A DNA stretch of 64,000 bases, taken from contig CM126202.1 of assembly GCA_052327205.1 (NCBI GenBank), positions 367,412,001 through 367,476,000 on the forward strand. The letters are read 5' to 3'. Made by a program: the position numbers and the translations under genes. Positions within the stretch are counted from its first letter, which is position 1. The number at the start of each line of letters is the position of its first letter. The DNA is from Somniosus microcephalus. Its lineage: Eukaryota. The notes under the pieces were generated by a model. The model searched no databases, was not told the origin of the DNA, and saw only the letters and a list, made by a program, of their open reading frames with translations. Of the stretch, positions 1-63,580 are shown piece by piece.

Positions 1-609
1 ATTGACTTATGATCATCTGCACAATTCCATGTGCATGCAATGTTTATCTCACATGTATAACTCATGCCTTTACTCCCCCACAGGACCATCGACAGCCCCC
101 CTCCCCACTGTCCAGGAGGAAGAGCCTGAGCCGGATGACTCCTCAGAGGACGCTGCAACCTCTGAGGGTGTAGTGTTGGCAGAATTAAGCGCACCCAGCA
201 CCAGCACAGACACTCACACCTCGGTGGGACCTTCGCGACATAGAGTAGTGCTGTCACCTGGTGTAGCACTTCTCACAAGTGAGCATCAGCAGATGGTGGA
301 GACAGCGACAGCAGTGGAGAGTCCTCATCGGAGGGCGCTCCCAGCTCTGCTCAGCTGCATGTGGACCCTGTGCCTTCGGGTCCATCCAGAAGGAGAGCGG
401 TGCTGGAACTCCAGGAACAGGTGCAGGCGTCTCTGGCAGGTTTTGTCTCCAGGGTCACTGCGAGTGTGGAGAGGATGGAGGAGTCCATCGTTAACATGAG
501 CAGAGCATTTGTGGAGGCATTGGCACATGAACGCATCACCACGGAAAGGATGGCAACTTCCATAGAGGAGAGGATGGCTACAGTAGAGCAGAGGATGGCT
601 ATGGCCATG

Positions 610-4933: not shown

Positions 4934-5017
4934 ACTGTTTTTACATGAAGTTGTGTATATATGTTATTATGTTATGTTAAATGGGGAATATATATTGTTA
5001 AGCTAAAAAGGGAGGAT

Positions 5018-5252: not shown

Positions 5253-6041
5253 CCATGGAGGAGCTAAGTCGCCAGAGTGTTGAAAACATGGTGATTGGTC
5301 AGAATAGACGGACATCTCTGGAGGGGTGATGGGCAGCTATTGAGCAGAGAAACCAGAGCTTCATGGAAGTCCTCTAGAGTAGGACTGCCAGTGCAGTAAC
5401 AGGTGCTCATGGCCCCCCTGAAGTGCTGTCAAGCCACTTGCTAGCTCTGAGGTGGGGCTGACCCATGAGAGGGATGTTGGTGGCAGACAACAAGGAAGTG
5501 GGGGCTCCTCTCCAAGCGCTCACACTCTCATGCCACTGCGGAGCCCTCGGTCAGAGCCCCACCAGAGTCCTCACCCAACTGAGATGGGCGTCTCATCCCC
5601 TGCACAGATGCAGGAGCAGCAGACTTTTGGCGAGCCCTCACAGGCTCACAACCCCAGAGGATGCCCGCCAAAGGCGTCGAGGCAGGAGCAGCATGAAAGT
5701 GAGCAAGGGGCCTCCACATCTGCTGAAGCCACAGGGAAGTACCACATAGGGGCATGCATAAGAGGAAGTTAGAGCACAAGTAGTCACAAGGGTAGTCACT
5801 TGGGTGTTCTATTGTGTTTAATTGTTAAATGCCATCCTTTAGTCAATGTAATCAAATGAAGTGATGGCAAACTGTTGAAGTTCTTGGCTGTGTCATTTTG
5901 CAAATGGCAGTTCCACATTGAGGGCTCAGGGTGACTTGGATTTGTCATGATGGTGGTCAGAGTGATAGGAAGCCATAGGTTCTTGTCCATTGTCTATGGT
6001 GTGGTAAGAAGGTGCAAGCCAAATGTGTTTCATTGGAGAAC

Positions 6042-7176
6042 CTAAGCAAATCTGGTCAAGATGAGTGCATCCCTTGTATCCCAGGCAGCAATGTGCTCAC
6101 GTGCTGCTGCCGCTGGTTTATGCGCCTCCATAAGATCTTTGTTCTCGTTCTCTTCCTCATCTGAGGAGGCTATGTGCTGAACCATTTGTCCCGCAGGCAG
6201 CTGCAAGCCACGATGCTGTGCGATGTTGTGAAGTGCACAGCAGGCCACGATGATTCTAGAGACCCTGGCTGCTGAGTACTGCAGGGCTCCACCTGATCTA
6301 TCAAGGCATCTGAATTGCATCTTCAGCAAGCCGATGGTTTGCTCGATAATGGATCTGGTGGAAATGTGGCTGGAGTTGTAGCGCTCCTCAGCTTCGTTGG
6401 ATGGCCTCCTGAATGGCATCATTAGCCACATCTTCAGGCAGCCATCTGGAAGGTTGGTTTGGCGAAATGAAGAGCGGAGACACACTAGACTGCCGTAGGA
6501 TGAAGGATTCATGGCAACTGCCAGGGTACTTGCCGCAAACATGCAAAATGTCCTTCTTGTGGTTACACACCAGCTGCACGCTGAGGGAGTGGAAGCCCTT
6601 GCGGTTGACAAATTACCTGGATTATGATGGGGTGCCTTAAGGGCCACATGCTTGATCTGTGGAGAAGTGGATGTAATTGTGTGCCTTTGCAAAGAGGGCA
6701 TTGGTAACCTGCATGATGCAAGTGTGTGCGGCTGACTGGGAGATGCCGCTGATGTCTGTTGATGGTCCCTGGAACGAGCTTGAAGCAAAAAATGTGAGTG
6801 CGGTGGTGACTTTTACAGCCACTGGTAAGGGGTGTCCACCCGCTCCTCTGGGCTCCAGGTGTTGGCGCAGCATTGCACAGAAGTCACCCACTACCTCTCA
6901 CGAAAGTCTCAGCATCCTTTGGCACTGCTGCTCAGTCATGTTGAGGAAGCTCATCCTCATCCTGTAAACCCTGTTTTGGGGGTATCTTCTGTGGCGATGT
7001 GCTTCCCTGTGTTGGCGTCTTCTGGCCTGTGCAGCTTCAGGTGGGTGAGCATCAGCTTGGCGCTCCTGTTGTTGCTCCTGCTGTTGGTGCTGCTGCTGTC
7101 CCTGGTTCTGCTGCTGTTGCGGCTGGTCTTCGTCTGAATCTGAGATCCAGGAGGAAAGGAAATAAATGGTTCCCTT
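6042..7176 (-). pseudogene. HARBI1-like (DDE_Tnp_4) transposase, decayed
   Basis: Motifs [67 protein letters not shown]. Deletions remove both the GxIDCT and GDKGY catalytic motifs. The start codon of copies 2 and 3 reads AAG here. Confidence 0.9.
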
Positions 7177-7892
7177 GCTGCTGGTATATACCTCAATTGA
7201 GGAAGTGCTCAGTCAATGTGGGGAGAGGATTTTCCCAGGAGATCAAAGGGGAGATGGATCTCAGCTTCACCACATCCAAAATCAGTAGACCTGCAAAAAG
7301 TTCTCCAAGACCTGAGAAAACAAAGTTCTGCCACCTGCAACTGATCCTTGTTGAAACTTCGTTTTTATGGTGGAGCTGCAGCTGTTAGGAAGCCAGCCAC
7401 TTGTGAACCCAACAGGATTAGCTGGCATGTTTCAGGAGAGACGTGCAGCACACAGGAAATGTGGCAAAATTTGAAAGGCCTCTCAAAATGGGATTATAAA
7501 AGTCGTTAAGTAGCTGTTAAGTGCCTTAAGGGCCTATCCCACCGCTAAGAGGTGGGACCGAAATGGAGTCTGCAAGCCCGCCTTTGGGAAAGTTGCACGG
7601 AGGCAGGTTGATGGCGGGATCAGAACCCACCATTATTTTTTACAACTTTCCCACCTGACCCGCCCTCAAACTCGCCTCCTCAGGGCTGGTAAAATCCAGC
7701 CTTGTGTCCTCCTCACAACTTGCTTTCCCACCTATCTTTGATCATCAGCAAATTTGGTAACAGTACACTTAGTCCCTTCATCCAAGTCATTAATATAGAT
7801 TGTAAGTAGTTGAGGCCCCAGCACTGTACCCTGTGGCACCCCACTAGTTACAGTTTGACAACCGGAAAATGACCCATTTATCCCGACTCTTT

Positions 7893-8726
7893 GGGTGTGA
7901 TTTTGCCAATGGTGGCACGTTGGAGGTGGGACTGCTGCTTGTCGGGTTTTAGTCCCGCCTCCATTGACTTGTGGCCAACCCACACTATTTTCCCTTGATT
8001 GACCTTGTTAAGCCAACCCGGCGGGTCAATTAAGGAGAAGCCAATTACAGAGAACGTCAGCGTATGACGTTTCATCTGTCAAAATTTTTTGACAAATGAA
8101 TTGTCATCGTTTGACAGCTCTGTGAAGCTGTCAAACACTGACATTCTCTGTTGTTTGATGAGTCCTAGTATTCAAGACTCATCAAACCTATCTGCTGAGC
8201 GAAAATCAGATGACTGTTGCATTGGAGAATGCAGTAGCCATCTGTCATCTCTGCTGCGGAGTTGCCGGAGTCTCCGGTTCCCCAACTGTTGAAGCCTGCA
8301 GGAAGAAACAAAGGTAAGTAAACATTTTCTATCACTTTTCACTCACCTCACATATTTACCCCTCCACACTTTCACCCATCACTCACTTCCACAGTGCACT
8401 TTTGGACCCCTCCGACCCCCGCAGACCCACTGCTCGCCTCACTGACCCTGGCAGGGTTTCCCGATGTCGGGAAGCCTGCACCTCTGCTGGAAAAATGGGG
8501 ATAATTCTCTTAACTGCCTGTTAATTACCTGTTAACAGGTAGTTAAGTGACTGTAATCCCCTTCCCACCTCCAGGAGATGGGACCCGGTGCAAGTCAGGT
8601 ACCCGCCTCCTGGGAAGATGGTACGGAGGCGGGTTGGGGCGGGATTGGTACTCGCCCCCAGATTCTGCCATTTTCCCAGCAGTCCCACCTCCAAACACGT
8701 CTCCCCAGGGCTGGCAAAATTGCCCC
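7893..8726. mobile_element. Non-autonomous Harbinger-type element (MITE family B)
   Basis: Imperfect TIR ggtgtgattttgcca / tggcaaaattgcccc. Internal blocks (ttgattgaccttgttaagcc, ttaacaggtagttaa) are shared in inverse orientation with 59655-60498. It interrupts CR1. TSD is ambiguous. Confidence 0.8.
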
Positions 8727-9138
8727 TGTAGTCTTCTGTTAGTTAGCCAATCCTCTATCCATGCTAATATATTACCCCCAACCCCGTGAGCTCTTATCTT
8801 GTGCAGTAACCTTTTATGTGGCACCTTATCGAATGCCTTCTGGAAATCCAAATACACTGGGCTGGATTTTGTCATTGGGGCAGGCTGGGGTCGTGTCATC
8901 TGCTTTTCGTGTTATCCACCCGATTCCAAATCGATGTGGGAGATTGATGCAATTTTCACAAAATTGGGAAACTGAGTTCCAGCATGTGGGAACCCATGGC
9001 CCATTTAGTTTTTTCAGTCTGAAACTTGCCTCCGACGACATCATCATAGCTGCTGCATTTAAGGTCTACAAGAAGCCTTGCTTCTTCTGCAGACTGCCAA
9101 ACTTTTGGCCCTTGCAGTGAGAGGGACCTGGAGGCAGA

Positions 9139-11031
9139 ATGAGCAGTGGGAGACCTAAGTCTGCTCTCAGATTTGATGACGTCGCCCTGCAAGCTTTGGT
9201 GGAGGGAGCAAGAGCTAGTAAGGTGGTGCTCTTCCCTTCAGAGAGGAAGAAGCCTCCTCAGCAGACGAAGGCTGTGTGGATCCACGTGGCCCAGGAGGTC
9301 ATCTCGTTGTTGATGATCCGCAGAACCTGGCTTCAGTGCAGGAAGAGCTTTCATGACATTCTGTGCACTGGAAAAGTGAGTATGACTTTGCCATCACCCT
9401 CAATCTGATCCTCAATGCCTCTCCTCACCAGCACTCAGCTTTAGCAACCTCTTCCTCCACATCCCACTTGACACTGACATTCCTGCATGCTTACCCATTA
9501 CCTCTCTCTCTATGGTCACATTCACCTAACTATTCGACTATGAAGCCCTCACACTCCCTATCACTGTGATGCTATGAAAACAACTTACAAAACTCAGGGA
9601 GGGCCTTGGCCTTGCCAACTCACTCCATCTTTGTCTCCTTCTAAGCATCTATTCTATGGATTCCCTACACTCACTCTTTCATTCTCACTCAAACTCCACT
9701 TGTCTCCCTCATTGCAGGAAAAGAGAGCTCACAATAAGAGGGAAAGAGCGAGGACAGGAGGAGGCCCACACTCAGTAGCCCCCCTCACCCCTTGGGTGGA
9801 GGTGGTCCTGGAGATCGTGGAACTCGAGAACGATGCGCAAGTGGGTGCATTAGAGAAAGCTGGTGACAGAATAGTTTTTATCTCTCTCATTGACATTGCA
9901 TGAGTCGCTGATAATGAATCTGATGCTCTAGCAGATGGACTTATGATCATCTGCAATATGCAATGTGCATGTAACCTTGGCCTCACATCTCTGACTCTTT
10001 CCTTTACTCCACCACAGGACCATTGCAAGCACCCATCCCCACTATCCAGGAGGAACAGCCTGAGCCTCCAGACTCCTCAGAGGAAGCTACAACCTCTGAG
10101 GACGCAGAATTTAGCCAACCCAGCACCAGCGCAGTCACTCACACCTCGGTGGGACCATTGCGGGATAGAGTACTGTTGTCACCTGGTGTATCACAGCTCA
10201 CAAGTGAGCATCAGCAGATTGTGGAGACAGGGACAGCAGTGGAGAGTCCTAGTTGGAGGGCATACGACGCTCCCAGCTCGGCTCAGCTTCATGTCGACAC
10301 TCTGCCTCTGGGTCCATCCAGAAGAACAGGTTTTGTCTTCAGGGTCGCTGCGAGTGTGTAGTGAATGGAGGAGTCCATCGCAAACATGAGCAGAGACTTT
10401 GTGGAGTCATTGGCGCATGAACACAGCACCACGGAAAAGATGGCAACCTCCATGAAAAGGATGGCTACAGTAGACGAGAGGATGACTACAGCCATGGAGG
10501 AGCTAAGTCGCAAGAGTGTAGAAAACATGGTGAATGTTCAGAATCAACTGACATCTCTGGAGTAGCGATGGTCAGCTATTGAACAGAGAAACCAGACCTT
10601 CATGGAAGTCTTTCTGAGTAGGAATGCCAGTGCAGATACTGGTCCCCATGGCCCCGCTGATGTGCAGCAAGGTGCTCTCAAGCCACTTGCAAGCACTTAG
10701 GTGGACCTAACCCATGAGAGGGATGTTGGTGGCAGGGAACAAGGAAGTGGGGGCTCCTCTCCAAGTGCTCACACTTCCATGCCACTGCCAAGCCCTCGGT
10801 CAGAGCCCCACCAGAGTCCCCACCCAACTGAGATCAGCGTCTCAACCACTGCACAATCGCAGGAGTAGCAGACAGTTGCCGAGCCCTCACAGGTTCGCAA
10901 CCCCAGAGGACGCCCGCCAAAGGTGTCGTGACAGGAGCGGCAAGAAAGTGAGCAAGGGGCCTCTACATCTGCTGAAGCTACAGGGGAAGCACCACGTAGG
11001 AGCACGCGTAAGAGAGATACTGCACAAATAG
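9139..11031 (+). pseudogene. Three-exon Myb/SANT-like ORF2 (exons 9139-9375, 9718-9862, 10018-~11031)
   Basis: RFDDVALQALVEG...WIHVAQEV...RTWLQCRKSFHD trihelix. Donor aaa|gtgagt, acceptor ttgcag|gaa giving ERARTGGGP, acceptor ccacag|gac. The second donor (gtgaca) is weak. Exon 3 contains stops. Confidence 0.85.
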
Positions 11032-11285
11032 TCACAAGGTTAGTTACTTGGGTGAAATGTGTTTATTTTTAAAATGCCATTAGTTGGTTATTGTAAATAA
11101 AAATTCTGATGGCAACTATTGCAGTTGTGGCATGTGTCATTTCGCTAATGGAACTTCCACACTGAGGGCTTAGGATTACTTGTAATTGTCAGTATGGTGA
11201 TCAGAGTGCTATGAATCCGCTGGTTCTTTGCCATTGTCGATGCTCTGGTAAGATGCTGCGAGGCAAAAGTGCATGATTGGCTAGG

Positions 11286-12505
11286 CTAAGCAAATCTGGC
11301 CAAGATGAGTGCGTTCCTTGCATCCTGGGCAGCAATGCTCACGCATACTTCTGCCACTGGTTGATGGGCCTCTGCAAGATGTTTGTTTTTGCTCTCCTCC
11401 TCCTCCTCCTCCTCCTCCTCATCTGAGGACGATATGTGAGGAGCCACTTGATCCTCAGGAATCTGCAAGCCACGACGCTGTGCCAAGTTGTGAAGTGCAC
11501 AGCAAACCACGATAATTCTGGAGACCCTGGGTTCTGAGTACTTCAGGGCTCCACCTGATCTATCCAGGCATCTGAAGCGCATCTTGAGCATGCCGATGGT
11601 TTGCTTGATTATGGATCTGGTGGAAATGTGGCTGTAGTTGTAGCTCTCCTCAGCTTCGTTGGATGGGCTCCTCAACGGCGTCATTAGCCACGTCTTCAGG
11701 GGATAGCTATCCATTAAATTGGTCTGGCGGACTGAAGAGTGGAGGCATACTAGACTGGCGCAGTATGAAGGAGTCATGGTAACTGCCAGGGTACTTGGCA
11801 CCAACATGCAAAATTTCCTTCTTGTGGTCACACACCAGCTGCACATTGAGGGAGTGGAAGCCCTTGCGGTTGACAAAAATGCCTGGATTGCAATGGGGTG
11901 CCTTATGGGCCACATGTGTGCAGTCAACGACACCCTGCAGCCTTGGAAAGCCTGCCAGATTAGCTAATTCAACCGCACATGCCGTGGCACTTGCTTGATC
12001 CTTGGTGAAATTGATGTGATTGTGCGCGATGGCAAAGAGGGCATCAGTTACCTGCGTGATGCAAGTGTGCGCGGCCACCTGGGAGACACCGCTGATGTCT
12101 GCTGCTGATCCCTGGAATGAGCCTGAAGCAAAAAAGGTTGAGTGCGGTGGTGACTTTGATGGCCACTGGTAAGGGTTGTCCACCTGCTCCTCTGGGCAGC
12201 AGGTCTTGCTGCACCATTGCGCAGATGTCACCCACTACCTCTTGAGAAAGTCGGAGCCGCCTTTGGCACTGCTGCTCACTCATGCTGAGGTAGCTGATCC
12301 TCTGTCTGTAGACCCTGTATGTGGGGTATCTCCTGCGCCAGCGGGCTTCCATGGGCTGGCACCTTCTGGCCTGTGCAGCTTCAGGTGGGTGAGCAGCAGC
12401 TTGGCGCACCTGTTGTTGCCGCTGTTGTTCATAGTCCTGCTGCTGCCGTGGCTAGTCTTCACCCGAATCTGATGTCCAGAAGGAAAGGAAATAAATGGTT
12501 CCCAT
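11286..12505 (-). pseudogene. HARBI1-like transposase, decayed
   Basis: Q-rich N-terminus, [53 protein letters not shown]. Frameshifts present and the GDKG motif is deleted at ~11707. Confidence 0.92.
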
Positions 12506-13500
12506 ACTTCTGGTAGATACCTCAGTTGAGGAAGCGCTCAGTCAAGGTGGCGAGAGGGGTTTTCCAGGAGGTCACACTGGAGATGGGTGTCAGGCTCCAA
12601 ACTTCCACAGCTATGGTTATGCCTGCTAAAAGTTCCCCCAGACCTGAGACAACAAAGTCCTGCCACCTGTAAATGATGACTGATCAAATCTCCTATTTAA
12701 TGGTGGAGCTGCAGCTGATAGTCAGCAATCCAATTGTGCTCCTGCCAGGTTTCACGGTTGTGTTTCAGAGGAGACGTGAATCACGTGGGAAATTTGTTAA
12801 AATTGGAAAGGCCTCTCAAAATGGGATTATAGAGGCAATTTAGTGGTTGTTAAGGACCTTAAGGGCCTATCCCGCCTCTTGGAGGCGGGACGGAGACGGG
12901 ATCAGAAACCACGCATTTGGGAAAATTGTATGGAGGCGGGGTCAGGCCTGCCCGCCACTTTCTGCAATTTTAACACCCCACATGCCTCCATTCCCACCTC
13001 CTCGGGCTTGGCAAAATCCAGCCACTACGTCTGTTGGTTCCCCTTTATCCTCCCTGCTCATTACATCCTCAAAGAACTCTGGTAAATTTGTCAAATACGA
13101 TTTCCCTTTCATAAAACCATGTTGACTCTGCTTGATTGTATTATGATTTTCTAAATGTCCTGGTATTACAGCCTTAATAATGGATTCCAGCATTTTCCCA
13201 ATGACAGATGTTAGGCTAACTGGCCTATAGTTTCCTGCTTTTTGCCTCCCTCCTTTCTTGAATAGGGGCGTTACATTTGCGGTTTTCCAAACCGCTGGGA
13301 CCTCTCCAGAATCCATGGAATTTTGGTGGATTACAACCAATGCATCCACTATCTCTGCAGCCACTTCTTTTAAGGCCCTGGGATATAGGCCATCCGGTCC
13401 AAGGGACTTGTCAGCTTTTAGTCCCATTAGTTTGCCTAGTACTTTTTCTCTAGTGATAGTCATTGTTTTAAGTTCCTGCCTCCCTATAGCCCCTACACAA

Positions 13501-13919
13501 AATTAGGAATGTATTCCCTAGCATTTAGAAGGTTAAGGGATAATCTGATCGAAGTTTGCAAGATATTAAGGAGAACAGATAGGGTAGATGGAGAGAAACT
13601 ATTTCCCCTGGTTGGGGATTCTACGACTAGGGGGCATCGTCTAAAAATTAGAGCCAGACTTTTCAAGAGTGAAATTAGGAAACACTTCTACACACAAAGG
13701 GTGGTAGAAGTTTGGAACTCTCTTCCGCAAACAGCAATTGATGCTAGGTCAATTGTTAATTTTAAATCAGAGATTGATAGTTTTTTGTTAACTAAAGGTA
13801 TTAAGGGATACGGGGCAAAGGCGGGTATATGGAGTTAGGTCGCAGATCAGCCATGATCTCACTGAATGGCGGAACAGGCTCGAGGGGCTGAATGGCCTAC
13901 TCCTGTTCCAATGTTCTTA
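13501..13919 (+). mobile_element. 5'-truncated CR1 LINE 3' end
   Basis: YSLAFRRLRDNLIEV...RGHRLKI...WNSLP...GIKGYG* plus the tail gatcagccatgatc...ggcctactcctg. Flanked by acacaa at 13495-13500 and 13920-13925. Confidence 0.9.
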
Positions 13920-13925
13920 ACACAA

Positions 13926-14100
13926 TAGTTAAAACTTTTAGTGTTAATCTCGATATCCCTCACAAATTTCTTTTCATATTCCCTTTTTGCAGCTCTTACT
14001 ATCATTTTTGTCCTCCTTTGCTGTTTTTATCTGTCCCAGTCCCCTGGATCTACACTATTCTTTGCACTTGTATATGCTCTTTCCTTTAGTTATATGTTAT
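13926..14100 (-). mobile_element. Older CR1 ORF2 fragment
   Basis: Minus strand reads EKKFVRDIEINTKSF, similar to ESKLAKNI.TDSKSF near 46200. Confidence 0.55.
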
Positions 14101-14104
14101 CTGA

Positions 14105-14510
14105 GATCATGAGTTGTGACCAAAGCTTGGTCAAAGAGGTGGATTTTAAGGAGGGTTTTAAAAGAGGAAAGTGAGATGGAGATCTGAGTGGTTTAGGGAG
14201 AGATTCCATAGCCTGGGCCCTAGGCAGCTGAAAACACTAACACTGGTGGTGGAATGAAGGGAGGGAGAATGCACAAGAGGCTGCAGTCAGAGGAATGGAG
14301 AAGTTGGACGGGTTGTAGTACGGGAGAAGGATACTGAAATAAGAAGTGCTGAAACCATGGAGAGATTTAAGCACAAAGATAAAAACTTTAAATTTTAGGT
14401 ACTGGGGACTCAGAGCCAATATATGGCAGTGAGGACAGGAGTGATGCACAAGTGGTACATGGTATGTGATAGGATATGGGCAGCAGAGTATTGGATGCGC
14501 TAAAGATCCA
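14105..14510 (-). mobile_element. L2 LINE 3' fragment
   Basis: Reverse-complement similarity to 48684-49327 (FKVFIFVLKSLHG, gaccaagctt, cagctgcctagg). Confidence 0.75.
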
Positions 14511-15694
14511 CAATAGCACAATGAGAAACAATCACATTTACAAAACTGAAAACATTAACTGGACTAGATATTCCTATTACCAGTATACTGTTTGGAAGAT
14601 GACCAGCAGCTTTTCATGTCCTTCGAATAGATTCTGCACCTTCTCTTACTACTTTTCATGATTGGAAATTGCATTCTGTAATTGTTCACATGTTAATGGA
14701 GCAAGCTTCGTGTAAATAGTATCATGGCTCATTTCCACAGTCCTCATGTTTGCACTGGGTGAGCTCATTGCCAACGACAGCCCAGTGCCCACTTTTGCAG
14801 TTAATTCAGCAGAATCAAATTTATTGTATTCCAGGAAACCTTGCTGACTAATGCAAATTCCCCCAGAGCATTGAAAATTAAGATCTGCTGGTTCTAATCT
14901 GCTGTGCACTGCTGCTGAAAACTTCCTGAACTTGAGAATTCTACTTTTAAGCCATTGAAGTCACTTTGTAACTGTAAGTACTAATTTTCAGCATCTATTT
15001 ACACATTCTATGTGGTGGTGGTACAGTTGTAATGAAGGTGAATAGCAAAATAAAAGTCTGAGTTCCATGTCCCTTAGTGCTGCCCCCCTATGTTTTCTGC
15101 AAGCTCATACTTAGGTTAATACTGCACCAATTTATTGTCCACATTGACTCCTTGAAATAATAATAAATTCCTGAAAACTTAACGTGTGAGTCCCAAATAA
15201 CTGATGGATTCAGAATGCTATATCTAATTGTGACCTAGGCCTACCTTTTTTGATGAAGCTTTATAGCCATCTTTGGTAAGTTGGAACAGATACCCTTTAA
15301 GATGATGCCCTTTTGTTTTCCCTTTACCTACTGTATGATATTTTGCCTCTGTAAATTTATCAGCTGTGTCAATGCTATTTACCTCAATTGTAGAGTATTG
15401 TTTCAAGCTCCCATTTGACTCAGGCTGATAATGACCATGAATTCAAGGTGATGTCTGCAATGTCTTCTTTCATTATGAGCCACTGAGCTTTTTTTCCCAT
15501 ATGGCCTTCAATCTGCTTAAATGATTCAACTTTCCAATGATCCAATGGCAGGATCATTTTTAATGTTTTCATTTGATGGAATTTGCAACTAAGGCCAGAT
15601 TTTCTTTTCCCTCGGTGGTAGTGAGTAATGCAAATGGTGTTTGTTTGGAGTCTTTGCTTCATTATCCCTTCATTTGAATATTAATGTGGTGCAG

Positions 15695-15810
15695 TGCTCT
15701 GTGGACTGGGTAGCACAGTGGAATTAAATACTATTCTTTTACTTCAGAGATGTAGGGTTGGATCCAGCCCAGACTGAGAGAATTAAAGTTTCCTTTCTTC
15801 AAAAGTTGCT
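15695..15810 (+). mobile_element. Decayed tRNA-derived SINE head
   Basis: A-box-like tagcacagtgg and B-box-like gggttggatccagccc. Resemblance to LF-SINE-type heads is from memory only. Confidence 0.45.
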
Positions 15811-16444
15811 GACGGTGCCATATTGGATACTTATATAGAAGAATATTGCAGATTTCATGCTATCGTGGGTTATAACACTGTCCTTTTATCTTTGGGACCT
15901 GCATTTAAAAAGCCAAGGCCTGTGGGATAGACATCTCCCTCTTTAAAGGTTGTAAGATACTTAACTGAAATGAATTTCAGTCATATTAATTTAATTCTTG
16001 ATGGACATTGGTCGACAGAAAGAAACTTGCATTTATGCAGTGCAAAATCTTCCATGATTTGTCACGAAATATCAATACTTAGGCAGTTGTTACTTTCATA
16101 TCTTAACATAGTGTGAAGTAGTGAGCGAAATCGCAGGCTGATTAACAGTCTGACCTGTAGTGTCCGAGGATCAATAATACTCAGACTGCAGGAGAACAAT
16201 AAAACAGGTATTTACTGAACAGTGAGTAATTCAAGACTGAAGTACAGAAGCCTGCTAGGGCTTTTTATACAGGTGTGGTCACTGCCGGTACTGCAGTATA
16301 AAATCAGTTCTTCTCTTAAAGGTACATACACAACAATTCCTCCCCTTTTAGATAAACAGTACATAACATTCATTTAACAACTAAATAATAACTAATTACA
16401 ATTACAATTTTCTCTGTACTATATACATCAACTGAAATAATTAT

Positions 16445-19400
16445 TTATAAGTTCAGTCTTTGAGGAGGCTTCCTGATCCTGACTGGATAGCGCCTTTCTC
16501 GAGTATCCTGTTCTTGCGGCGGAGTCGATTCTGGCTCATTGTCATTGGTTGATTCGTCAGCTTCCAATACCACTGCTTCTGATGTAGATGCAATCTGTAC
16601 TTTGGGTTCATTACCAGGTGCACATGCTCATGGTATAGGTTTGGCTTGTTCCTGTGACTCTAGAATCTGGTCAGCATAGCGTCTCACGATGCTCTATCCA
16701 ACGTCCACTGTGTACATTAGTGGTCCCTGCTGTGTGCATATAGTTCCTGGCTGCCATTTTTAGTTCGGTAGTCGCGGGCCAAGACTGGTTGCCCTATCTT
16801 GAAGCTCCTGGTTGGCTTCTCATTGATGTGCTGGAATTGCTTATCCTCAACATCTCGTCTTATGTTTGGTTTGAGCAAATCCAGGTGACATCTTAGCCTT
16901 CGGTTGAAGAACATTATGGCTGGAGCTTGGTTGGTGACTGCATGTGTCGCATTCCGGTAAGCAAACAAGAAATTATCTACCTTGTGTTGTAGTGGTATGT
17001 CATCGTTATACATCGCCTTTATTGCCTTTTTAAAGGTCTGAACAAACCTCTCAGCCAATCCATTTGTGGCTGGATGATATGGGGCAGATGTGTAATGTTT
17101 CACCCCATTATTCCTCAGAAACCTCCGGAAATCCTCGGACACAAACTGTGGCCCATTGTCGGAGCAAATCTGTTCTGGCAAGCCATTCCTGCCGAAGATG
17201 GTCCGTGGGACTGCAATAGTTTTCTCCGTGGTGGTGGAGGACATTTTGATGACCTCTGGCCATTTTGAGTGGGCATCCACGGCGATTAGAAACATTGAGT
17301 CCATAAATGGACCATCAAAATCAATGTGTACCCATTGCCATGGAGATGAGGGCCACTCCCATGGGTGTAGCGGGGCCTGTGGTGGTGCGTTTTGGACCTT
17401 CTGGCATCCTGTGCATCTCTTGGTCATATCCTCAATTTCATTATCGATTTCCGGCCACCACACAAACGCCCTGGCTAGGCTTTTCATTTTTACCCCTCCC
17501 AGATGACCCTCATGAAGCTCATTGAGCACTCTATTTCTCAACTTGGGTGGAATTACCACTCGGGATCCACACATCAAGGTCCCCCGGCACACTGACAGCT
17601 GTTCTCTCCTTGGCGAGAATGCTGGCAACAGTGAGTCGCCATGTGCTGGCCATCCCTTCACTGTCAAATCATAGACCCGAGAGAGTGTCGGGTCATTTCG
17701 GGTTTCCTTCTCTATACTTGAGTTTGTAACAGGCAGACATTCGACTATGGTCGCATGGAATATCTCAACAGGGTCCACTGCAGGTGCTTCCTCTACCATA
17801 GGCAACGGTAGACACAACAGCCCATCAGCGTTTCCATGCTGTTTCATACCCTTGTACTCTATGTCGTACTGATGTGCCCCTAGAAAAGGTGACCATCTTT
17901 GCAGCCGTTGCGCCGTCATCACCGGAACTCCCTTCTTTGGGTTAAAAATGGAGACCAGGGGCTGATGATCAGTCAGTAGGGTGAATTTCTGCCCGTGCAG
18001 ATAGTGATTGAACTTCTTCACCCCCCACACCAGGCTGAGGGCCTCCCTGTCAATCTGGGCGTAGTTACGCTCGGCTGAGGTTAACGAGCGCGACGCAAAG
18101 GCTATTGGCCTCTCTGAACCGTCAAGGAATTTGTGTGACAGCACCGTTCCAATGCCGTAGGGAGACGCATCACATACCAACCGAATCGGTAGTGTTGGGT
18201 TGTAGTGGGCCAATACTTCTTTTGAAGTGATTAGGCATTTACATTTCTGAAAGGCATGCTTATACTCATCACTCCATTTCTATGTTACTCCAGTTTGCAG
18301 CAGGGCGTTCAGTGGGTGCAGAATTGTAGATAAATTCGGCAAGAACTTATGGTAGTAGTTCACCAACCCGAGGAACGACCTCAGTTGCGACACATTTTCC
18401 GGTGCTGGAGCCTTGACTACAGCCTCAATCTTGTCTGGTGACTTATGCAACCCTTTCTCATCAATCATGTGGCCACAATACGAGATTTGTCTCCTGAAGA
18501 ACTCGCATTTGGGGCGGTTGGCTCGTAGCCCATATTCCTGTAATGTAGTGAGCTCCTGCTCCAGGTTGGCAAGGTGTTCACTGTCATTTTCGCCCGTAAC
18601 CAGGATGTCATCCAAATAACACTGGGTCCCCGGGATCCCTTGCAGGACTTGTTCCATTGCCCTCTGCCAAATAGCCGGGGCTGATGCTACCCCAAATACC
18701 AGTCAATTGTACTGGTAAAGGCATTTGTGAGTGTTTATGGTGAGGTATTGCCTAGATGCTTCTTCCACCTCCATTTGTAGATATGCTTGGGCCAGATCAA
18801 TCTTCATAAAGCGTTTCCCTCCAGATAGTGAGGCGAAAATATCTTCTATCCGTGGAAGAGGATATTGTACTGTGTGCAGGACTGGGTTCACAGTTACCTT
18901 GAAATCCCCACAGATGCGAACCTTCTTCGGCTCCCCTGGCGTTCTGCACAATGATTTCTTCATTACAAGAATGATGGGTGTGGCTCACTCACTCCAGTCT
19001 ACCTTGGACAGCACACCCGAATGCTCCAGACTCTCCAGTTCTGCTTCAACAGCTGGGCGGATCGCGTACGGTACCGGTCTGGCCTTAAAAATTTTTGGGT
19101 TTGCGTTATCTTCGATTTTTATCATTGCCTTTACTCCTTTTAGAGTCCCAAGTCCTTGTTGGAACACCTCTTTCGCGTCAGTTAGAATTTTTGACAGTCG
19201 TCCAGGTGTGACGTCATCATCCTTTATGCCAGTCACAGTTAGCGCCTGAATGGAATGCCAATCCAATTGTATTTTTCGGATCCATTCACGTCCCAATAAT
19301 GGTGGTCCTCCATCTTGTAGTATATATAGATACAGTTTCTGTGTGTCCTTGCCGTTGTATTTAACTGGCACCCTTATTTTTCCTCTGGGGTAGACTTTTT

Positions 19401-20398
19401 GCCCTGTGTATGTCTTCAATACAATAGACGTGTCCTTCAAGGGTATGTGTGAGAATAGCCGCTCCTAGTCTCGTCGATTCATGACAGTTAGGGCTGATCC
19501 TGTATCCAATTCCATCTTTACTTGGGACCCTGCTATCATGAGGGTGACCCAAATGGTTCGGTGATCCTCCTTTGCGATCACGTTGTGTAACTTTAGACAA
19601 CTTAGTCTCCTGCTCCCGGAGTCATTATCACTCTCCTGATCTTCCGAACTACTGTCTGTCATTTTTTTTTACTTTCTTGTACTTTTCCTTAGTAGTTCTT
19701 GTAGTGTTGGTTTTCTTTCCCAACCTGCAGACTCTTGCTATATGTCCCATTTTCCCGCATTGCCTGCATACTTTGTCCTTAAACCAGCAGTCCTTCTGAT
19801 CATGGGTTGTTCTGCCGCAGTGATAGCACTTTTCTGCTCCATACGCCATTTCGTTAGCGCTGTATTCTTGTGGTTTCTGTTGTATTTCCGCAGCTCCCCG
19901 TGCTGCTGCTTCGTAAGATACTGCCACGCTGAAAGCCTGTTCTAGCATCGGGTTCTTTTCCGAAAGTAGTCGTTTCTGGGTTCCTTCACTCTGGAGCCCG
20001 CAGACAAACTTATCCCGTAAGGTGTCTGCCAGTCCTGCTCCGAACTGGCAGTGCTTCGATAACTTGCGTAGTTCCGTAAGATAGTCAGCATTGTTCTCAT
20101 CTTTGTACTGGTTTCTTTTATGGAACTTGAATCGTTCTGCTATCAGCAGCGGTGTAGGGTTTAGGTGTTCCTGTAAGATATTAACAATCTCTTCAAAACT
20201 TTTCTCCATTGGTTTAGCTGGGGTAATTAAATTCCGCAATAAGCCGTACATTCTCGCGCCCATCAAATTTAATAATACCGACGCCTTCTTTCCATTGGCC
20301 ACCTCATTGGCATTGCAGTACACGTCAATTCTTTCCACATACGTGGCCCAGTCTTCTACCTCGTTATCGAAAGCAGTGATACTGCCACTCTTCGGCAT
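16445..20398 (-). pseudogene. Gag-Pol polyprotein, several stops and frameshifts
   Basis: MPKSG...EDWATYVERI gag, two CCHC knuckles, LDTGS, YLDD, DASPYG, HEGHLG HHCC and SDNGPQF integrase core. Confidence 0.93.
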
Positions 20399-20410
20399 CT
20401 TGGGTGATTT

Positions 20411-20528
20411 AAAATGGCACCTCCTGCGCTTTTTCTTCTTCCCCAATGTAATAAAATGGTGCCTCCCGCGCTTTTCCTTCTTTCCCAATGGAATAAAATG
20501 GCGCCTCCCGCGCTTTTCCTTCTTCCCC
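20411..20528. repeat. 42-bp tandem repeat (~2.8 copies) in the Gypsy-2 leader
   Basis: Units aaaatggcgcctcccgcgcttttccttctt... start at 20411, 20453 and 20495. Confidence 0.9.
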
Positions 20529-22205
20529 TTGCTGCCCCGCTGCTCCTAGCGTTCTACAGGGTAATGGCGGTGACCCGCGGCTTCGGCGCATATCACTTTT
20601 CCTTCCCCGCATTCTATCCTCTCCACGCTGCCAGGTTCTTGAGCACCGACCGCGCCCTGTGCGCTCCACCCTCTCTCTCTCTTCCTCCCGACGACGCTGC
20701 ATGGCCCCTTTGCAGAGCCGCTCGATCGAGCCCGAGCCCACCACAGTCCGGAAGGGTCAGTGCACTACCTGCTACCAGCACGACTTGCTGGAACACCTCG
20801 ACTGGGGAGCCAGGCCCAGCTCTCCACAGCCTCCCCTGCAACTCTCCCATGGATCCCTGGGCGGTTGCCCGTGGTCGACGCCCGCCATTCTGACTTCGAC
20901 CTCCAAGAAGCTTCTCTTCAGGGAAAAGATCCCCGTGAGGTGATGCAGTACTGCAGGTGAGTTCAAACCTGCCCGTCACCAGTGTAGTGTCCGAGGGTCA
21001 ATAATACTCAGACTGCAGGAGAACAATAAAACAGGTATTTACTGAACAGAGAGTAATTCAAGACTGAAGTACAGAAGCCTGCTAGGGCTTTTTATACAGG
21101 TGTGGTCACTGCCGGTACTGCAGTTTAAAATCAGTTCTTCTCTTAAAGGTACATACACAACATGACCGGTCGTGAGATGAGTGCTCCTTCCATGGCCATA
21201 ACCACCTTTATACTATCCGATAGGGTGGTTAGTCCTAAGCAGTGGGAGGGTTTTATTGGCTCCCACAAACCCCATGATGCAAGAGGGCCTCCTACACCCA
21301 CCAGATTTGAATATCCACGCTGGATGTCAAGCCAGAATTCAGAGCCGGAGCTCCAGCCTCCACTCGCCCAGACCCTCAGGTTCGAACCCTGCACCTTCTG
21401 TCTCAGAGGCAGGAACATTACTACTGAGTCAAAGGCTCACTTGTCAATTAGGCAGAGTCACTCTGGGAATCCATTGGGCTATCTGATGCTGGAAATGAAA
21501 AGGTTTCACTGGTCTGTTTCAGCATGTGCTGCTCTTTTGAGGTTAGGGATAAGGTAATTTGTTGAGGTAGTTGGAAATTGGATAAAAATTGTGAGAAATG
21601 TTTTTTCACATACAACCATTTACACACATTATATATTAGTGAACACAACTACTTGCAATCATATAGGGCTGGAATTTGTCAGCTCAGAGGAGGCGGGAAT
21701 GGATGCGTGTGGGGTGTTAAAATTGCAAAAAGTGGTGGGCGGGCCCGACCCCGCCCGACCCCGCCTCCATCCCGCCTCCAAGCAATTTTCCCAAATGCGT
21801 GGTTTCTGATCCCGTCTCCTTCCCGCCTGTTTGAGGCGGGATAGGCCTTTAAGGTCCTTAACAACCATTAAATTGCCTCTATAATCCCATTTTGAGAGGC
21901 CTTTCCAATTTTATCACATTTCCCACATGATTCACGTCTCCTCTGAAACACAACCGTGAAACCTGGTGGGAGCACAATTGGATTGCTGACTATCAGCTGC
22001 AGCTCCGCCATTAAATAGGAGATTTGATCAGTCATCATTTGCAGGTGGCAGGAATTTGTTGTCACAGGTCTGGGTGAACATTTAGCAGGCATAACCATAG
22101 CTGTGGAAGTTTGGAGCCTGACACCCATCTCCAGTGTGACCTGCTGGAAAACCCCTCTCACCACCTTGACTGAGCGCTTCCTCAACTGAGGCATCTACCA
22201 GAAGC

Positions 22206-23434
22206 ATGGGAACCATTTATTTCCTTTCTTCCTGGACATCAGATTTGGGTGAAGACCAGCCGCGGCAGCAGCAGCACTATGAACAACACTAGCACCAACA
22301 GCAGCATCAACAACAGGAGCGCCAAGCTGCTGCTCACCCACCTGAAGCTGCACAGGCCAGAAGGTGCCAGCCCATGGAAGCCCGCTGGCGCAGGAGATAC
22401 CCCACAAACAGGGTCTACAGACAGAGGATCAGCTACCTCAGCATGAGTGAGCAGCAGTGCCAAAGGCGGCTCCGACTTTCTCAAGAGGTAGTGGGTGACA
22501 TCTGCGCAATGGTGCAGCAAGACCTGCTGCCCAGAGGAGCAGGTGGACAACCCTTACCAGTGGCCATCAAAGTCACCACCGCACTCAGCTTTTGCTTTAG
22601 GCTCATTCCAGGGATCAGCAGCAGACATCAGCGGCATCTCCCAGGCGGCCGCACACACTTGCATCACGCATGTAACCGATGCCCTCTGCCATTGTGCATA
22701 ATCACATCCATTTCTCCAAGGATCAAGCAAGTGTCACGGCGCGTGCAGTTGGATTAGCTAATCTGGTAGGATTTCCAAGGGTGCAGGGTATCATTGACTG
22801 CACACGTGGCCCTTAAGGCACCCCATCGCAATCCAGGAATTTTTGTCAACCGCAAGGGCTTCCACTCCCTCAACGTGCAGCTGGTGTGTGACCACAAGAA
22901 GGAAATTTTGCATGCCTGTGCAAAGTACCCTGGCAGTTGCCATGACTCCTTCATACTGCGCCAGCCTAGTATGCCTCCACTCTTCAGTCCGCCAGACCAA
23001 CTTAACAAGGGCTATCCCCTGAAGACGTGGCTAATGACGCCGTTGAGGAGCCCATCCAACGAAGCTGAGGAGAGCTACAACTACAGCCACATTTCCACCA
23101 GATCCATAATCGAGCAAACCATCGGCATGCTAAAGATGCGCTTCCGATGCCTGGATAGATCAGGTTAGCCCTGCAATACTCAGCAGCCAGGGTCTCCAGA
23201 ATCATCGTGGTTTGCTGTGCACATCACAACATGGCACAGCGTCGTGACTTGCAGATTCCTGAGGACCAAGTGGCTCCTCACATATCATCCTCAGATGAGG
23301 AGGAGGTGGAGGAGGAGGAGGAGGAGAGCGAAAACGAACATCTTGCAGAGGCCCATCAACCAGCGGCAGCAGTATGCGAGAAAATTGCTGCCCAGGATGC
23401 AAGGAACGCACTCATCTTGGCCAGATTTGCTTAG
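22206..23434 (+). pseudogene. HARBI1-like transposase, decayed
   Basis: MGTIYFLSSW...[56 protein letters not shown]. In-frame loss of GWLxGD at ~23005. Confidence 0.92.
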
Positions 23435-23691
23435 CCTAGCTAATCAAGCACTTTTGCCTCGCAGATTCTTACCAGAGCATCGACAATGGCAAAGAACCAG
23501 TGGATTCCTAGCACTCTGACCACCATACTGACAATTGCAAGTAATCCGAAGCCCTCAACGTGGATGTCCCATTTACGAAATGATGCACGCCACAACTGCA
23601 ACAGTTTCCATCAGAATTTTTATTTACAATAACCAACTGATGGCATTTTAAAAATAAAAACATATTTTCACCCAAGTGACTACCCTTGTGA

Positions 23692-25634
23692 CTAATTGTG
23701 CAGTCTTTCTCTTATGCGTCCTCCTACGTGGTGCTTCTCCTGTGGCTTCAGCAGATGTGGAGGCCCCTTGCTCACTTTCTTGCTGCTCGTGTCTTGACAC
23801 CTTTGGTGAGTGTCCTCTGGGGTTGCGAACCTGTGAGGGCTAGGCAAAAGTCTGCTGCTCCTACGGCTGTGCAGATGTTGAGATGCCGATCTCAGTTGGG
23901 TTGGGACTCTGGTGGGGCTCTGACCGAGGACTTGGCAGTGGCATGGAAGTGTGAGCACTTGGAGAGGAGTCCCCACTTCCTTGTTCTCTGCCACCAACAT
24001 CCCTCTCATGGATCAGATCCACCTCAGCACTTGCAAGTGGCTTGATAGCACCTTGCTGCACTTCAGGGGGACCACGGGGACCCCCATCAGCACTGGCAGT
24101 CCTACTCAGAAAAACTTCCATGAAGGTCTGTTTTCTCTGTTCAATAGCTGACCATCGCTCCTCCAGAGATGTGAGTCTATTCTGAACACTCACCATGTTT
24201 TCTACACTCTGGCGACTTAGCTCCTCCATGGCCATAGTCATCCTCTCGTCTACTGTAGCCAACATTTCCGTGGTGCTGCGTTAATGCCCCAATGGCTCCA
24301 CAAAGGCTCCGCTCATGTTCGCGATGGACTCCTCCATTCGCTCCACACTCGCAGTGACCCTGGAGACAAAACCTGCAAGAGACTCCTGCACCTGTTCCTG
24401 GAGTTCCAGCACCGCTGTTCTTCTGGATGGACCCAGAGGCAGAGTGCTGACATGCAGCTGAGCCGAGCTGGGAGAGTCCTGCGCCCTCTGACTAGGACTC
24501 TCCACTGCTGTCCCTGTCTCCACAACCTACTGATGCTCACTTGTGAGCTGTGATACACCAGGTGACAACATTAATCTATCTCGCGATGGTCCCACCGAGG
24601 TGTGAGTGTCTGCGCTGGTGCTGGGTTGGCTGAATTCTGCTGACGCTGCGCCCTCAGAGGTTGCAGCTTCCTCTGAGGTGTTTGGAGGCTCAGGCTGTTC
24701 CTCCTGGATAGTGGGGATGGGTGCTTGCGATGGTCCTGTGGTAGAGTAAAGGAAAGAGTCAGAGATGTGGGGCCAAGGTTACATGCACATTGCATATTGC
24801 AGATGATCATAAGTCCATTAGTTAGAGCTTCAGAATCATTATCAGTAACTCATGCAATATCAATGAGAGAGATGAACAACTATTCTGTCACCAGCTTTCT
24901 CTGATGCACCCGTCTGTCCGCCCCCCCACTTGTGCATCGTCCTCGAGTTCCACAATCTCCAGGACCGCCTCCTCCCAAGGGGTGAGGTGGGCTACTGAGG
25001 GTGGCCCTCCTCATGTCCTCGCTCTTTCCCTCTTATTGTGAGCTCTCTTTCCCTGCAATGAGGGAGACAAGTGGAGTTTGAGTGAGAATGAAGGAGTGAG
25101 TGTAGAGTACCATAGCATAGGTGCTTAGAAGGAGACAAAGATGGAGTGAGTTAGCAAGACCAAGGGCCCTCCCTGTGTTTTGTAAGTTGTTTTCATAGCA
25201 TCACAGTGATAGGGAGTGTAAGGGCTTCATAGTCGAATAGTTAGGTGAATGTGACCATAGAGAGAGAGGGAATGGGTAAGGATGCAGGGATGTCAGTGTC
25301 AAGTAGGATGTGGTGGAAGAAGTTGCAAAAGCTGAGTCCTGTTGAGGAGAGGCAATGGGGATCAAATTGAGGGTGATGGCAAAGTCATACTCACTTTTCC
25401 AGTGTGCAGAAGGTCACAAAAACTCTTCCTGCACTGAAGCCAGGTTCTGCGGATCATCGACAATGAGTTGACCTCCTGGGCCACGTGGATCCACACAGCC
25501 TTCGTCTGCTGAAGAGGCTTCTTCCTCCCTGAAGAAAGGAAGAGCACCTCCTTACTAGCTCTTGCTCCCTCCACCAAAGCTTGCAGGGTGACGTCATCAA
25601 ATCTGGGAGCAGACTTAGGTCTCCCGCTGCTCAT
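23692..25634 (-). pseudogene. Three-exon Myb/SANT-like ORF2 (exons 25634-25395, 25052-24892, 24735-~23692)
   Basis: MSSGRPKSAPRFDDVTLQALVEG...RTWLQCRKSF. Same splice sites as copy 2. Contains stops. Confidence 0.85.
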
Positions 25635-26530
25635 TCTGCCTCCAGATCCCTCTCACTGCAAAGGCCAAAAGCTTAGCCATCTGCAGAAGAAGCAAGGCTT
25701 CTTGCAGACCTTAAATGCAGCAGCAATGATGACGTCATCGGAGGCGAGTTTCGGACTGAATAAACTAATTGGGCCATGGGTTCCCACACGCTGGAACTGA
25801 ATTGCCCAATTATGTGAAAATCACATCAATCTCCCACATCGATTTGGAATCAGGTGGATAACACGAAAAGCGAAGGACATGACCCCAGCCCGCCCCATGA
25901 CAAAATCCAGCCCACAGTGTCTTTAATGTAATAAAATATCCCAAGGCGCTTCATAGAGTAAGATCAATTATCAGAATATATCCAATTTGGAAGAAACTTC
26001 CTTAGACTAAGAACTATGTAAGGAAATTAGATTTTTTTTTGCTTGTGAAAATGTTTCAAATTAAAGAAAAACATTTATTGAAATAATTAGTGATTTGATT
26101 TTACTGACCAGTAAGTGGAGCAGGCTCGAAGGGCCGAATGGCCTACTCCTGCTCCTATTTCTTATAACCAGGAAAATGGCCATCTCAGTGGGATGTGAGA
26201 AGAGGGGGGAGGATAGCAATTCTTTGTTTTTTTTTTAATTGCCCTATTTATATATAAAACAGATTATTGGTGATAGAATCGCAATATTAGCAAAATGTAC
26301 CAGCAGACTACCAAGACTATTTCTACCTTTCCATTAAAGAAAGCAGCCTGAGATTCACCTGGTCTGCAGTTAGCACTGTCTGATTACCCTGAGCTCCATG
26401 AGACATCATTTCACCATCCAAAACTCTACAGCATTGTGGGTCACAGCTCCCTGGTGATAAAGGTGAGTAGAAACATTTCTGAGGTTGGATCAGAGGATTG
26501 TGTTATTATGTGCACGACTTAAGATCTTAT

Positions 26531-60498: not shown

Positions 60499-61006
60499 CT
60501 CAATGTTTTCAAGGGGAGCCTGGATAGGCACTTGAGGGAAATAAACTTGCAGGGCTACGGGGATAGGGCGGGGGAATGGGACTGACTCAATTGCTCTACA
60601 AAGAGCCGGCACAGACTCGATGGGCCAAATGGCCTCCATCTCTGCTGTCATGCCTCTATGACTCAAAGGCCTAGAAATTCAGTCTGGACACTTTTGGGGC
60701 GCTAAAGTCGGGCGCTCGCTAAAGTTAGCGGCCGCCGAAATTCAGTAGAGTTGGCCCTAAGTTTGGCCGAGCGCTGAAACTGGCGTTGAAATGCTGTGTT
60801 CCGGCGCTAAGCCGGCGATGCGGCCTAATAACGCCGAAGCCGGGCGCAGCGCAGGTGCGGTCATGTTTTGATTGACAGCAGACACCCTGACGCCGGCCAG
60901 CTCTTAAAGGGGGAAGGGTCAACTTTGACTGCTGCCACGCCCTGCATACTGGAGCCCTGCAGCTAGGCCTCAGCACTACTGGTGTGCCAAAATAGCGCCT
61001 GGAGCA

Positions 61007-63174: not shown

Positions 63175-63580
63175 AGTGTGGTGAGAGCGGTTTCTTTTAT
63201 ATTGGGGGGCTTGTGTTGTGGGGGGCATTATTTTGTTAAGGCCGAGGATCAAGGCATTTTTTGTTTTCATGGGGGTGTCTCTGTTGTGGGGGGGGGGCTT
63301 ATTTTTGTAAGGCCGCTGTTGAAGGCCTTTTGGATGGGCAAGTTTTGTTAGTCCTCCCCAGATTTTGGGAGTGACAGATGTTTTTGACTGTTTTTTGGGG
63401 GTCTTGTCTGTTTTTCTGTTTCATGTGGGAAGGGCCCTGAGTTTGTGAAATAAAGCTTTTGATTTATTCAGCATGTCCAGATGTCATGTTTGAAGTGGTT
63501 GTTGCGTTAACCGGCTGAGGGCTTGCGGAGCGGCTGCCTCAGGTGCGTTCATTGCCACAGGCCATTCCCTGACAGGGGGC

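Follow-up and report, generated by a model that had tools for sequence, protein, structure and literature searches.

Overlapping small deletions through the catalytic Gly-Asp codons of shark Harbinger transposases: a probable deletion hotspot at a predicted hairpin

Introduction

The DNA described here is a stretch of 64,000 nucleotides (nt) from Somniosus microcephalus (NCBI GenBank assembly GCA_052327205.1, contig CM126202.1, positions 367,412,001 to 367,476,000 of the forward strand), referred to below as the window. Animal DNA rich in repeats, it contains retroelements of the Gypsy, Pao and CR1 types as well as four transposase copies of the PIF/Harbinger type. Three of these belong to one family, and each has lost the Gly-Asp (G-D) codons of a conserved catalytic motif to a different short deletion. 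An earlier model-made reading of the same DNA (the original prediction) had singled out these deletions as the possible mark of an undescribed way of silencing transposons. Here we report the alleles, their recurrence among related shark proteins and their fit to a predicted hairpin, and weigh the processes that could have produced them.

The Harbinger copies of the window

Copies 1 to 3 form one PIF/Harbinger family, in which copies 2 and 3 are 92.6% identical and copy 1 stands at 82%. Their transposase pseudogenes, whose starts were placed by eye, lie at 6042..7176 on the minus strand (copy 1), 11286..12506 on the minus strand (copy 2) and 22206..23434 on the plus strand (copy 3). All four copies match PF13359 (DDE_Tnp_4, HARBI1-like), with E values of 2e-22 for copy 3, 4e-13 for copy 2, 5e-13 for copy 1 and 2e-17 for copy 4. 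The proteins that best match the window transposases are annotated 'putative nuclease HARBI1' in sharks (top identity 66%), the nearest being those of Pristiophorus japonicus at 60–66% identity; the exact family of copies 1 to 3 has no entry in the protein collection searched.

Two of the elements are whole. Copy 2 (8859..13023, minus strand) is bounded by terminal inverted repeats and an ACT duplication, its Myb-like partner gene running on the opposite strand from about 9139, and copy 3 (21666..25913, plus strand) likewise has terminal inverted repeats, with the duplication ATA/ACA. Copy 1 sits in a CR1-type long interspersed nuclear element (LINE) and is split: the transposase half (5253..7701, minus strand) ends in a terminal inverted repeat at 7701, and the partner-gene side lies beyond a Gypsy insertion at 1..609 (minus strand), from where it leaves the window. 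Copy 4 is a partial element (60668..64000, minus strand) with a Myb-like gene on the plus strand and the 3' half of the transposase on the minus strand. The Myb/SANT-like partner gene matches PF13873 in copy 4 (E 1e-12) and weakly in copy 2 (E 0.0017, under the curated cut-off), the two copies that the domain scan covered, and copies 1 and 3 align to copy 2. The terminal inverted repeats are short and the target duplications 3 nt long, as in PIF/Harbinger elements generally: ACT/ACT in copy 2, where the right repeat is one base short, ATA/ACA in copy 3, and TCT/TCT and AAG/AAG around MITEs (miniature inverted-repeat transposable elements), the empty TCT site being visible in a sister long terminal repeat (LTR). 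With the opposite-strand pair of genes (PF13359 and PF13873), the short terminal inverted repeats, the 3-nt duplications and an extended target preference, the elements share the organisation of vertebrate PIF/Harbinger transposons and are ordinary Harbingers (compare excerpts of PMC9179366). The ratio of nonsynonymous to synonymous substitutions between copies is 0.48–0.55 without correction for CpG sites, which suggests that their ancestors were partly constrained.

The original prediction had used copy 4 as the intact reference for the other three. Its GWLIGDKGY motif (63951..63979, minus strand) is indeed intact. At 66.5% DNA identity over 233 nt, and in a separate clade of the tree, copy 4 represents another subfamily and is thus no intact sibling of the three, although the deletion sizes once inferred from it still stand.

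Three deletions through the Gly-Asp codons

To size the deletions we aligned the copies, allowing for frameshifts, to a profile built from 20 named shark transposases. Copy 1 has lost 20 nt after its W-L codons (6432..6447, minus strand), a frameshifting deletion that takes the codons G-D-K-G-Y. The 17-nt deletion of copy 2 (11700..11715, minus strand) also shifts the frame and lies between two GGCT repeats, and that of copy 3 (23001..23018, plus strand) removes 18 nt in frame, so that DQLN is directly followed by KGYPL. The junctions show microhomologies of 1, 4 and 2 nt in copies 1, 2 and 3, respectively. Three different deletions at these positions were what the original prediction had described, and the profile alignment bears it out.

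We take the Asp of the G-D-x-G-Y motif to be the second residue of the DDE triad. Across 90 named homologues it is the acidic column with the highest conservation, D occupying 90% of 89 rows. In a structural model of the relative P0014 (predicted local distance difference test score 86), the G-D Asp comes after a strand, the first Asp belongs to the first core strand, a helix carries the Glu, and the modelled fold aligns to DDE transposases and integrases with Z 8–9 and root-mean-square deviation 4–6 over 127–230 aligned positions; as modelled, the G-D Asp sits where the second triad residue is expected. Foldseek returned no match at E 0.001 or better, and a sequence search for a solved structure gave designed-repeat noise only.

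The conserved part of each open reading frame (ORF) carries other lesions: a 77-nt deletion, a -1 frameshift and a stop in copy 1, a +1 frameshift in copy 2, and four more frameshifts (-2, -2, -2 and -1) in copy 3. In addition, the ORFs vary in length at their Gln-rich start and in their Glu-rich tail. Copy 1 thereby lacks both catalytic Asp residues, and copy 2 lacks one Asp and, through a Glu-to-Lys change, the catalytic Glu. The original prediction had noted few other deletions of comparable size in each ORF, and among further non-repeat deletions of at least 10 nt in the conserved part we find just the 77 nt of copy 1. That deletion (6652, minus strand) takes the first catalytic Asp, and a 2-nt deletion in copy 3 directly follows the same residue (22801, plus strand). 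In copy 3 this 77-nt stretch folds well (z -2.3); in copy 2 it does not.

Judged from the aligned bases, the three deletions are independent, as had been claimed. Explaining copies 2 and 3 by a single shared deletion would cost 6 edits, where separate events need 3 substitutions; for all three copies the costs are 14 edits and 7 substitutions. Copy 3, although the sister of copy 2, retains K-G bases that copy 2 lacks; 12-column windows with at least 5 differences between these two copies are found at this junction only. One ancestral deletion that was modified later is therefore largely refuted and keeps next to none of our belief, even though copy 1 can be derived from the copy 2 allele by a 3-nt loss and one substitution.

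If the deletions are placed at random in the ORF, a three-way overlap anywhere has a probability of 0.0036, or 0.0009 when the 77-nt deletion is left out; random placement over the shared element gives 0.008, and an overlap on a catalytic codon about 1e-4. These values disregard that the case was picked post hoc from a genome scan, and because such a scan tests many families the window alone does not exclude chance.

Recurrence among shark relatives

Recurrence was tested on predicted proteins, which are gene models rather than DNA and in which annotation favours intact copies. The set of 169 comprised 130 named proteins of sharks and rays, drawn from three batches of hits (63 of 120 listed, 4 of 13 and a further 63 new ones) after other taxa and unnamed hits had been set aside, together with the 39 unnamed hits that scored best out of 115 new ones; among prokaryote genomes no DNA of relatives was found. 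G-D is kept in 99 of the 129 named proteins that span the site, and none of the 129 has a gap of 3–10 residues over the Asp, so we reject a hotspot shared by sharks at large.

The picture within the subfamily is different. In the tree, copies 1 to 3 group with 15 proteins, 12 of them named Pristiophorus proteins (FastTree 0.995, IQ-TREE 94.6), and two of the 15, P0224 and P0228, both from the unnamed hits, appear to be deleted at the site by 36 and 20 nt. P0224 reads PPNTL directly followed by KTW, a loss of 12 codons that is resolved to codons only. P0228 reads GWLL followed by EDVAHD, which is the frameshifted reading of copy 1 with the breakpoint 2–3 bases further on, whence the 20 nt. By contrast, none of the 154 proteins of other shark subfamilies has a gap of 4–20 residues over the Asp; four have gaps of 27–48 residues there that may be predicted introns. 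The difference between 2/15 and 0/154 gives a Fisher p of 0.007 by protein and 0.010 by gap, and 0.025 by simulation, values to be read knowing that P0224 was noticed before the clade was drawn. When all 169 proteins are taken together no clear excess is seen: the Asp is covered by 2 of 65 short gaps, by rough estimate about what uniform placement would give. The hit members span 50–61% identity.

We consider the deletion hotspot very probably real. The original prediction of a recurrent lesion site with microhomology-type junctions is thus strengthened by two more proteins of the same subfamily, whereas a general silencing of Harbingers is not supported, given the result for the other 154.

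Lesser changes are also seen nearby. Small frameshifts or in-frame gaps in P0110, P0150, P0120, P0209, P0113 and P0032 adjoin G-D without passing cleanly through it, among them a -1 in K-G in P0110 and P0150 and a complex -2 in P0120; these changes, all in other shark subfamilies, may reflect background or the hotspot in a weaker form. An apparent peak of low-score boundaries at 216–235 is due to a variable loop.

A hairpin at the deletion site

The lost segment can be reconstructed as a 29-nt imperfect inverted repeat that encodes G-W-L-L-G-D-K-G-Y-P. The G-W codons pair with those for G-Y-P in a 7-bp outer stem, CTTG pairs with CAAG in a 4-bp inner stem, and a 4-nt loop lies on the Gly-Asp boundary. 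The outer stem consists of bases visible in the window. The inner stem depends on nine lost bases whose codons we infer from relatives read out of frame, namely CTT-GG(A/C)-GAC in P0110 and P0150 and (C/A)TT-GGA-GAC in P0213; P0057, of the sister clade, is compatible with these codons, but mutated. The filled site is predicted to fold into a single stem-loop of -6.3 kcal/mol covering all that the three window deletions remove between them. About 1% of ORF 33-mers fold into an equivalent single stem-loop, and an outer 7-bp stem at the outer breakpoints, counted from window bases only, has a background of 0.9–1.8%.

The breakpoints follow the parts of this predicted structure. Copy 3 lacks the left arm and the loop; copy 1 and P0228 lack the loop and the right arm, copy 1 the inner stem as well; copy 2 lacks the top of the hairpin; and P0224 lacks the whole hairpin plus a few bases on each side. 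What all four alleles with DNA-level resolution have certainly lost in common is three of the four loop bases. At the copy 2 junction, positions 11701–11712 form a perfect 12-nt palindrome, which owes its perfection to a G-to-A change of a kind found at 3 of 244 comparable sites. Weaker folds are predicted where such deletions are missing: copy 4, with the outer stem only, reaches -3.1 kcal/mol and the P0171 subfamily -1.2 to -1.5. The outer stem and the fit of the breakpoints to the predicted fold can be regarded as established, as can the alleles and their independence.

We therefore favour an imperfect hairpin, whose ends and loop match the breakpoints, as the simplest cause and the best reading of these alleles, and put the chances of a hairpin-directed hotspot that falls on the catalytic codon incidentally at about even. 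The site would become single-stranded, on the lagging strand or during gap repair after excision of an element, and would fold in vivo; the polymerase might then slip across the hairpin, or the loop might be cut and the ends rejoined, at nearby short repeats. An event would remove a single arm, just the top or the entire hairpin, but the loop would go every time, and the catalytic Asp codon with it. The link to catalysis would be incidental, the conserved protein motif being what writes the hairpin.

Several observations weigh against this explanation. The stem is modest, at about the 10th percentile of the best local folds in these ORFs, so that hairpin strength alone can be set aside as a cause. 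In the region shared by the three copies, copy 3 contains 16 hairpins of -6 kcal/mol or stronger, including several between -8 and -11, and not one of them has been deleted from every copy. Among 32 other indels of at least 9 nt in repeat pairs of the window, 3 fall in the top tenth of hairpin stability, with a mean quantile of 0.57; as stronger hairpins are spared and other indels are not biased towards them, the deletion rate does not follow hairpin stability. The geometry statistics were picked after the hairpin had been seen, and 50 of 72 possible codon fills give a stem-loop that closes at both ends in at least one strand at any energy. The fill from P0057 folds at best at -4.6 kcal/mol, yet two deletions occur in its clade, and the inner dyad is present in other subfamilies that lack such deletions. 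Experimental precedents used perfect or longer repeats: in mice a 29-bp repeat gave mostly large deletions, those below 30 bp being rare (excerpt of PMC12686595), and longer, more perfect repeats carry the risk (excerpt of PMC7999016). The hairpin thus accounts for the positions of the breakpoints better than for the fact that three of three copies were hit, and this leaves room for a sequence-specific cutter acting on the same dyad.

Other local features of the site were considered and rejected. A dense hotspot of short-repeat slippage, which the original prediction had named as a possible explanation to be checked, does not apply, the site having 1–3 repeat pairs of at least 4 nt against a mean of 2.2. 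A 7-of-9 repeat 20 nt apart frames the deletions of copy 1 and P0228 and is matched at 51% of positions, so that repeats set the breakpoints, not the rate. A cryptic terminal repeat matches at 6 of 12 bases, a score equalled at 121 of 1120 positions; by eye nothing resembles the heptamer of a cryptic RAG signal; and for a G-quadruplex there are GG tracts only, as in 9% of 30-mers.

Relation to known deletion systems

Internally deleted derivatives of DNA transposons, as with Ds, P and the formation of MITEs, arise through abortive gap repair with deletions at short repeats. Those deletions are usually large and scattered, whereas the shark ones are small and centred on one codon. A closer likeness exists with inverted-repeat reporters. 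In yeast, most deletions at an inverted repeat pair a microhomology within the repeat with one beyond it, and both polarities occur (excerpt of PMC9262586), and in mammalian cells a perfect 29-bp repeat breaks at the tip of the loop and leaves microhomology junctions (excerpt of PMC12872147). The shark alleles resemble the lys2-InsH and 29-bp cruciform reporters, as excerpted, in their microhomology junctions, in having one breakpoint inside the stem and one at or outside it, and in the loss of the loop. They differ in that the repeat is short, imperfect and protein-coding and the deletions span 17–36 nt and are fixed in the germline; the reporters carry perfect or longer repeats and often undergo large deletions. 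The recurrent deletion of the catalytic codon is best filed as a structure-linked deletion hotspot.

Should the hairpin explanation be true, the catalytic motif of the transposon itself would encode a fragile structure and with it a built-in route to decay; protein constraint would make this hard to evade other than by the choice of codons. The codons of other shark subfamilies fold less, which would provide a testable link between codon usage and the lifespan of a transposon.

Competing explanations

A sequence-specific nuclease is unlikely, although it would explain some of what the hairpin does not. A long-lived germline nuclease, of the host or of a mobile element, would recognise a long site specific to one shark Harbinger subfamily and centred on CTTG-N4-CAAG, and would cut at the Gly-Asp boundary; end joining would delete 17–36 nt, and cutting would continue until the site was destroyed, so that copies were lost one by one. 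Deletions of this size with microhomologies of 1–4 nt resemble the repair of a point break. The 3-nt core common to all four DNA-resolved alleles, the hitting of three of three copies while stronger hairpins were spared, the restriction to one subfamily whose members are just 50–61% identical, and the small frameshifts next to the motif in P0110, P0150 and P0120 all agree with a cutter. A point cut, however, predicts neither outer breakpoints at the base of the stem nor the perfected palindrome of copy 2. Homing endonucleases and target-specific mobile elements are known to hit one point in a conserved coding motif repeatedly, but the window offers no candidate enzyme, guide or inserted element and no Rfam match, its long ORFs are ordinary retroelement genes, and the one second copy of the site in it is that of copy 4. 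We know of no homing endonuclease or target-specific element for a vertebrate Harbinger gene. The Creative Commons literature of PubMed Central and bioRxiv yielded no such nuclease system, no report of an element targeting Harbinger genes and none of recurrent deletion at the G-D motif, and excerpts of PMC4671723, PMC9710019 and PMC10288884 contain nothing on the site. The cut site would be the stretch that an active element can least change, and if the nuclease existed it would constitute an undescribed DNA-cutting transposon defence in a vertebrate, possibly with a new enzyme.

Chance, in the form of ordinary microhomology deletions that happen to overlap and were picked from a large scan, appears improbable. 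The background is about 2 indels of at least 9 nt per kb of aligned pair, and an event of probability 0.001–0.008 would be expected many times across tens of thousands of windows; the pooled gap count among the 169 proteins and the early sighting of P0224 point the same way. On the other hand, both gaps over the Asp belong to the 15-protein sister clade, and the window had fixed their position in advance (p 0.007–0.025), and the hairpin fit would be a further coincidence of 1–2%.

Self-targeting, likewise raised by the original prediction, is highly doubtful. A Harbinger or MITE would have inserted at the Lys codon with an AAG duplication and excised imprecisely, repeatedly, until the target was lost. 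An AAG duplication is compatible with all three junctions, Harbinger derivatives are dense in the window, and the site matches the target of MITE M2 at 9–11 of 15 bases in a register that is best in 46 of 48 fills. Yet matches of at least 10 occur at 0.8% of positions, which amounts to about 10% over the 13 registers tried, and the target score of the site (median 1.0, best 3.4) compares poorly with 2.9–8.2 for true targets, so that the site fits the target preference of the window's Harbingers weakly. No copy with an insertion at the Lys codon was seen. Losses of 17–20 nt also contrast with the usually precise excision of PIF/Harbinger elements, which in yeast was precise in 109 of 110 cases (excerpts of PMC2836001 and PMC4561436).

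Selection is very improbable. Under it the host would keep dead copies only, or deleted derivatives would spread better in trans after losing a repressor or small-RNA site, and the loss of both catalytic Asp residues in copy 1 and of Asp and Glu in copy 2 would fit. However, any frameshift kills the enzyme, two of the alleles are themselves frameshifts, and since all three copies carry other fatal lesions host selection cannot focus on the Asp codon; most annotated shark copies moreover keep G-D (99 of 129 named). The proposal of the original prediction that selection left only dead copies is thus not upheld, and on the hairpin reading the case cautions that a catalytic residue can be lost repeatedly without selection or targeting.

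That deletions eroded a meiotic break hotspot of the PRDM9 type within the element is scarcely credible. PRDM9 targets turn over fast, and here one site is hit in lineages 40–50% apart in protein. Meiotic breaks do raise indel rates 100- to 1300-fold per break, with microhomology, but indels at autosomal hotspots lean towards insertions (excerpt of PMC7615360), some cartilaginous fish lack the SSXRD domain, and the PRDM9 of the elephant shark is not fast-evolving (excerpt of PMC5519329), which makes the role of PRDM9 in this group doubtful.

Other features of the window

The window also allows the target preference of its Harbingers to be described. At 15 Harbinger-type ends (7701, 7893, 8726, 8859, 13023, 21666, 25913, 27227, 38288, 44448, 45157, 58812, 59521, 60499 and 60668), GAC occupies positions -5 to -3 of the duplication in 5 of 15 (p 5e-7, the motif having been spotted before testing), and the first base of the duplication is A or T in 13. 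As far as sequence can tell, the combination of GAC and A/T is a target consensus for shark Harbingers. The target of the MITE at 58812–59521 resembles the deleted Asp-Lys-Gly codons at 9–11 of 15 bases, a likeness that is not significant.

Between 7702 and 13493, the end of copy 1, a non-coding element (7893–8726) and copy 2 lie within about 350 nt of one CR1-type LINE. The Gypsy element in the partner-gene side of copy 1 (610–5252) has identical 235-nt LTRs and a CCATG duplication and is recent. A Harbinger derivative at 38288–39728, which lacks the entire catalytic core, is broken by another Gypsy element (from 39728), whose right LTR contains the MITE at 44448–45157. This MITE and those at 26629–27227 and 58812–59521 have a terminal repeat in common with copy 4 (60668), which makes the copy 4 subfamily their likely mobiliser. 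The elements at 51612–52251 and 54949–55658 are related, inverted in orientation and about 73–75% identical, and the former ends in an 18-nt stretch (52235–52252) that resembles two fused terminal repeats. A Pao-type element occupies 29102–33980; a 35-nt indel and 3% substitutions set its two 727-nt terminal repeats apart. Finally, positions 36807–37034 show a weak match (15 bits) to the N-terminal region of the transposase and are perhaps a very old Harbinger remnant.

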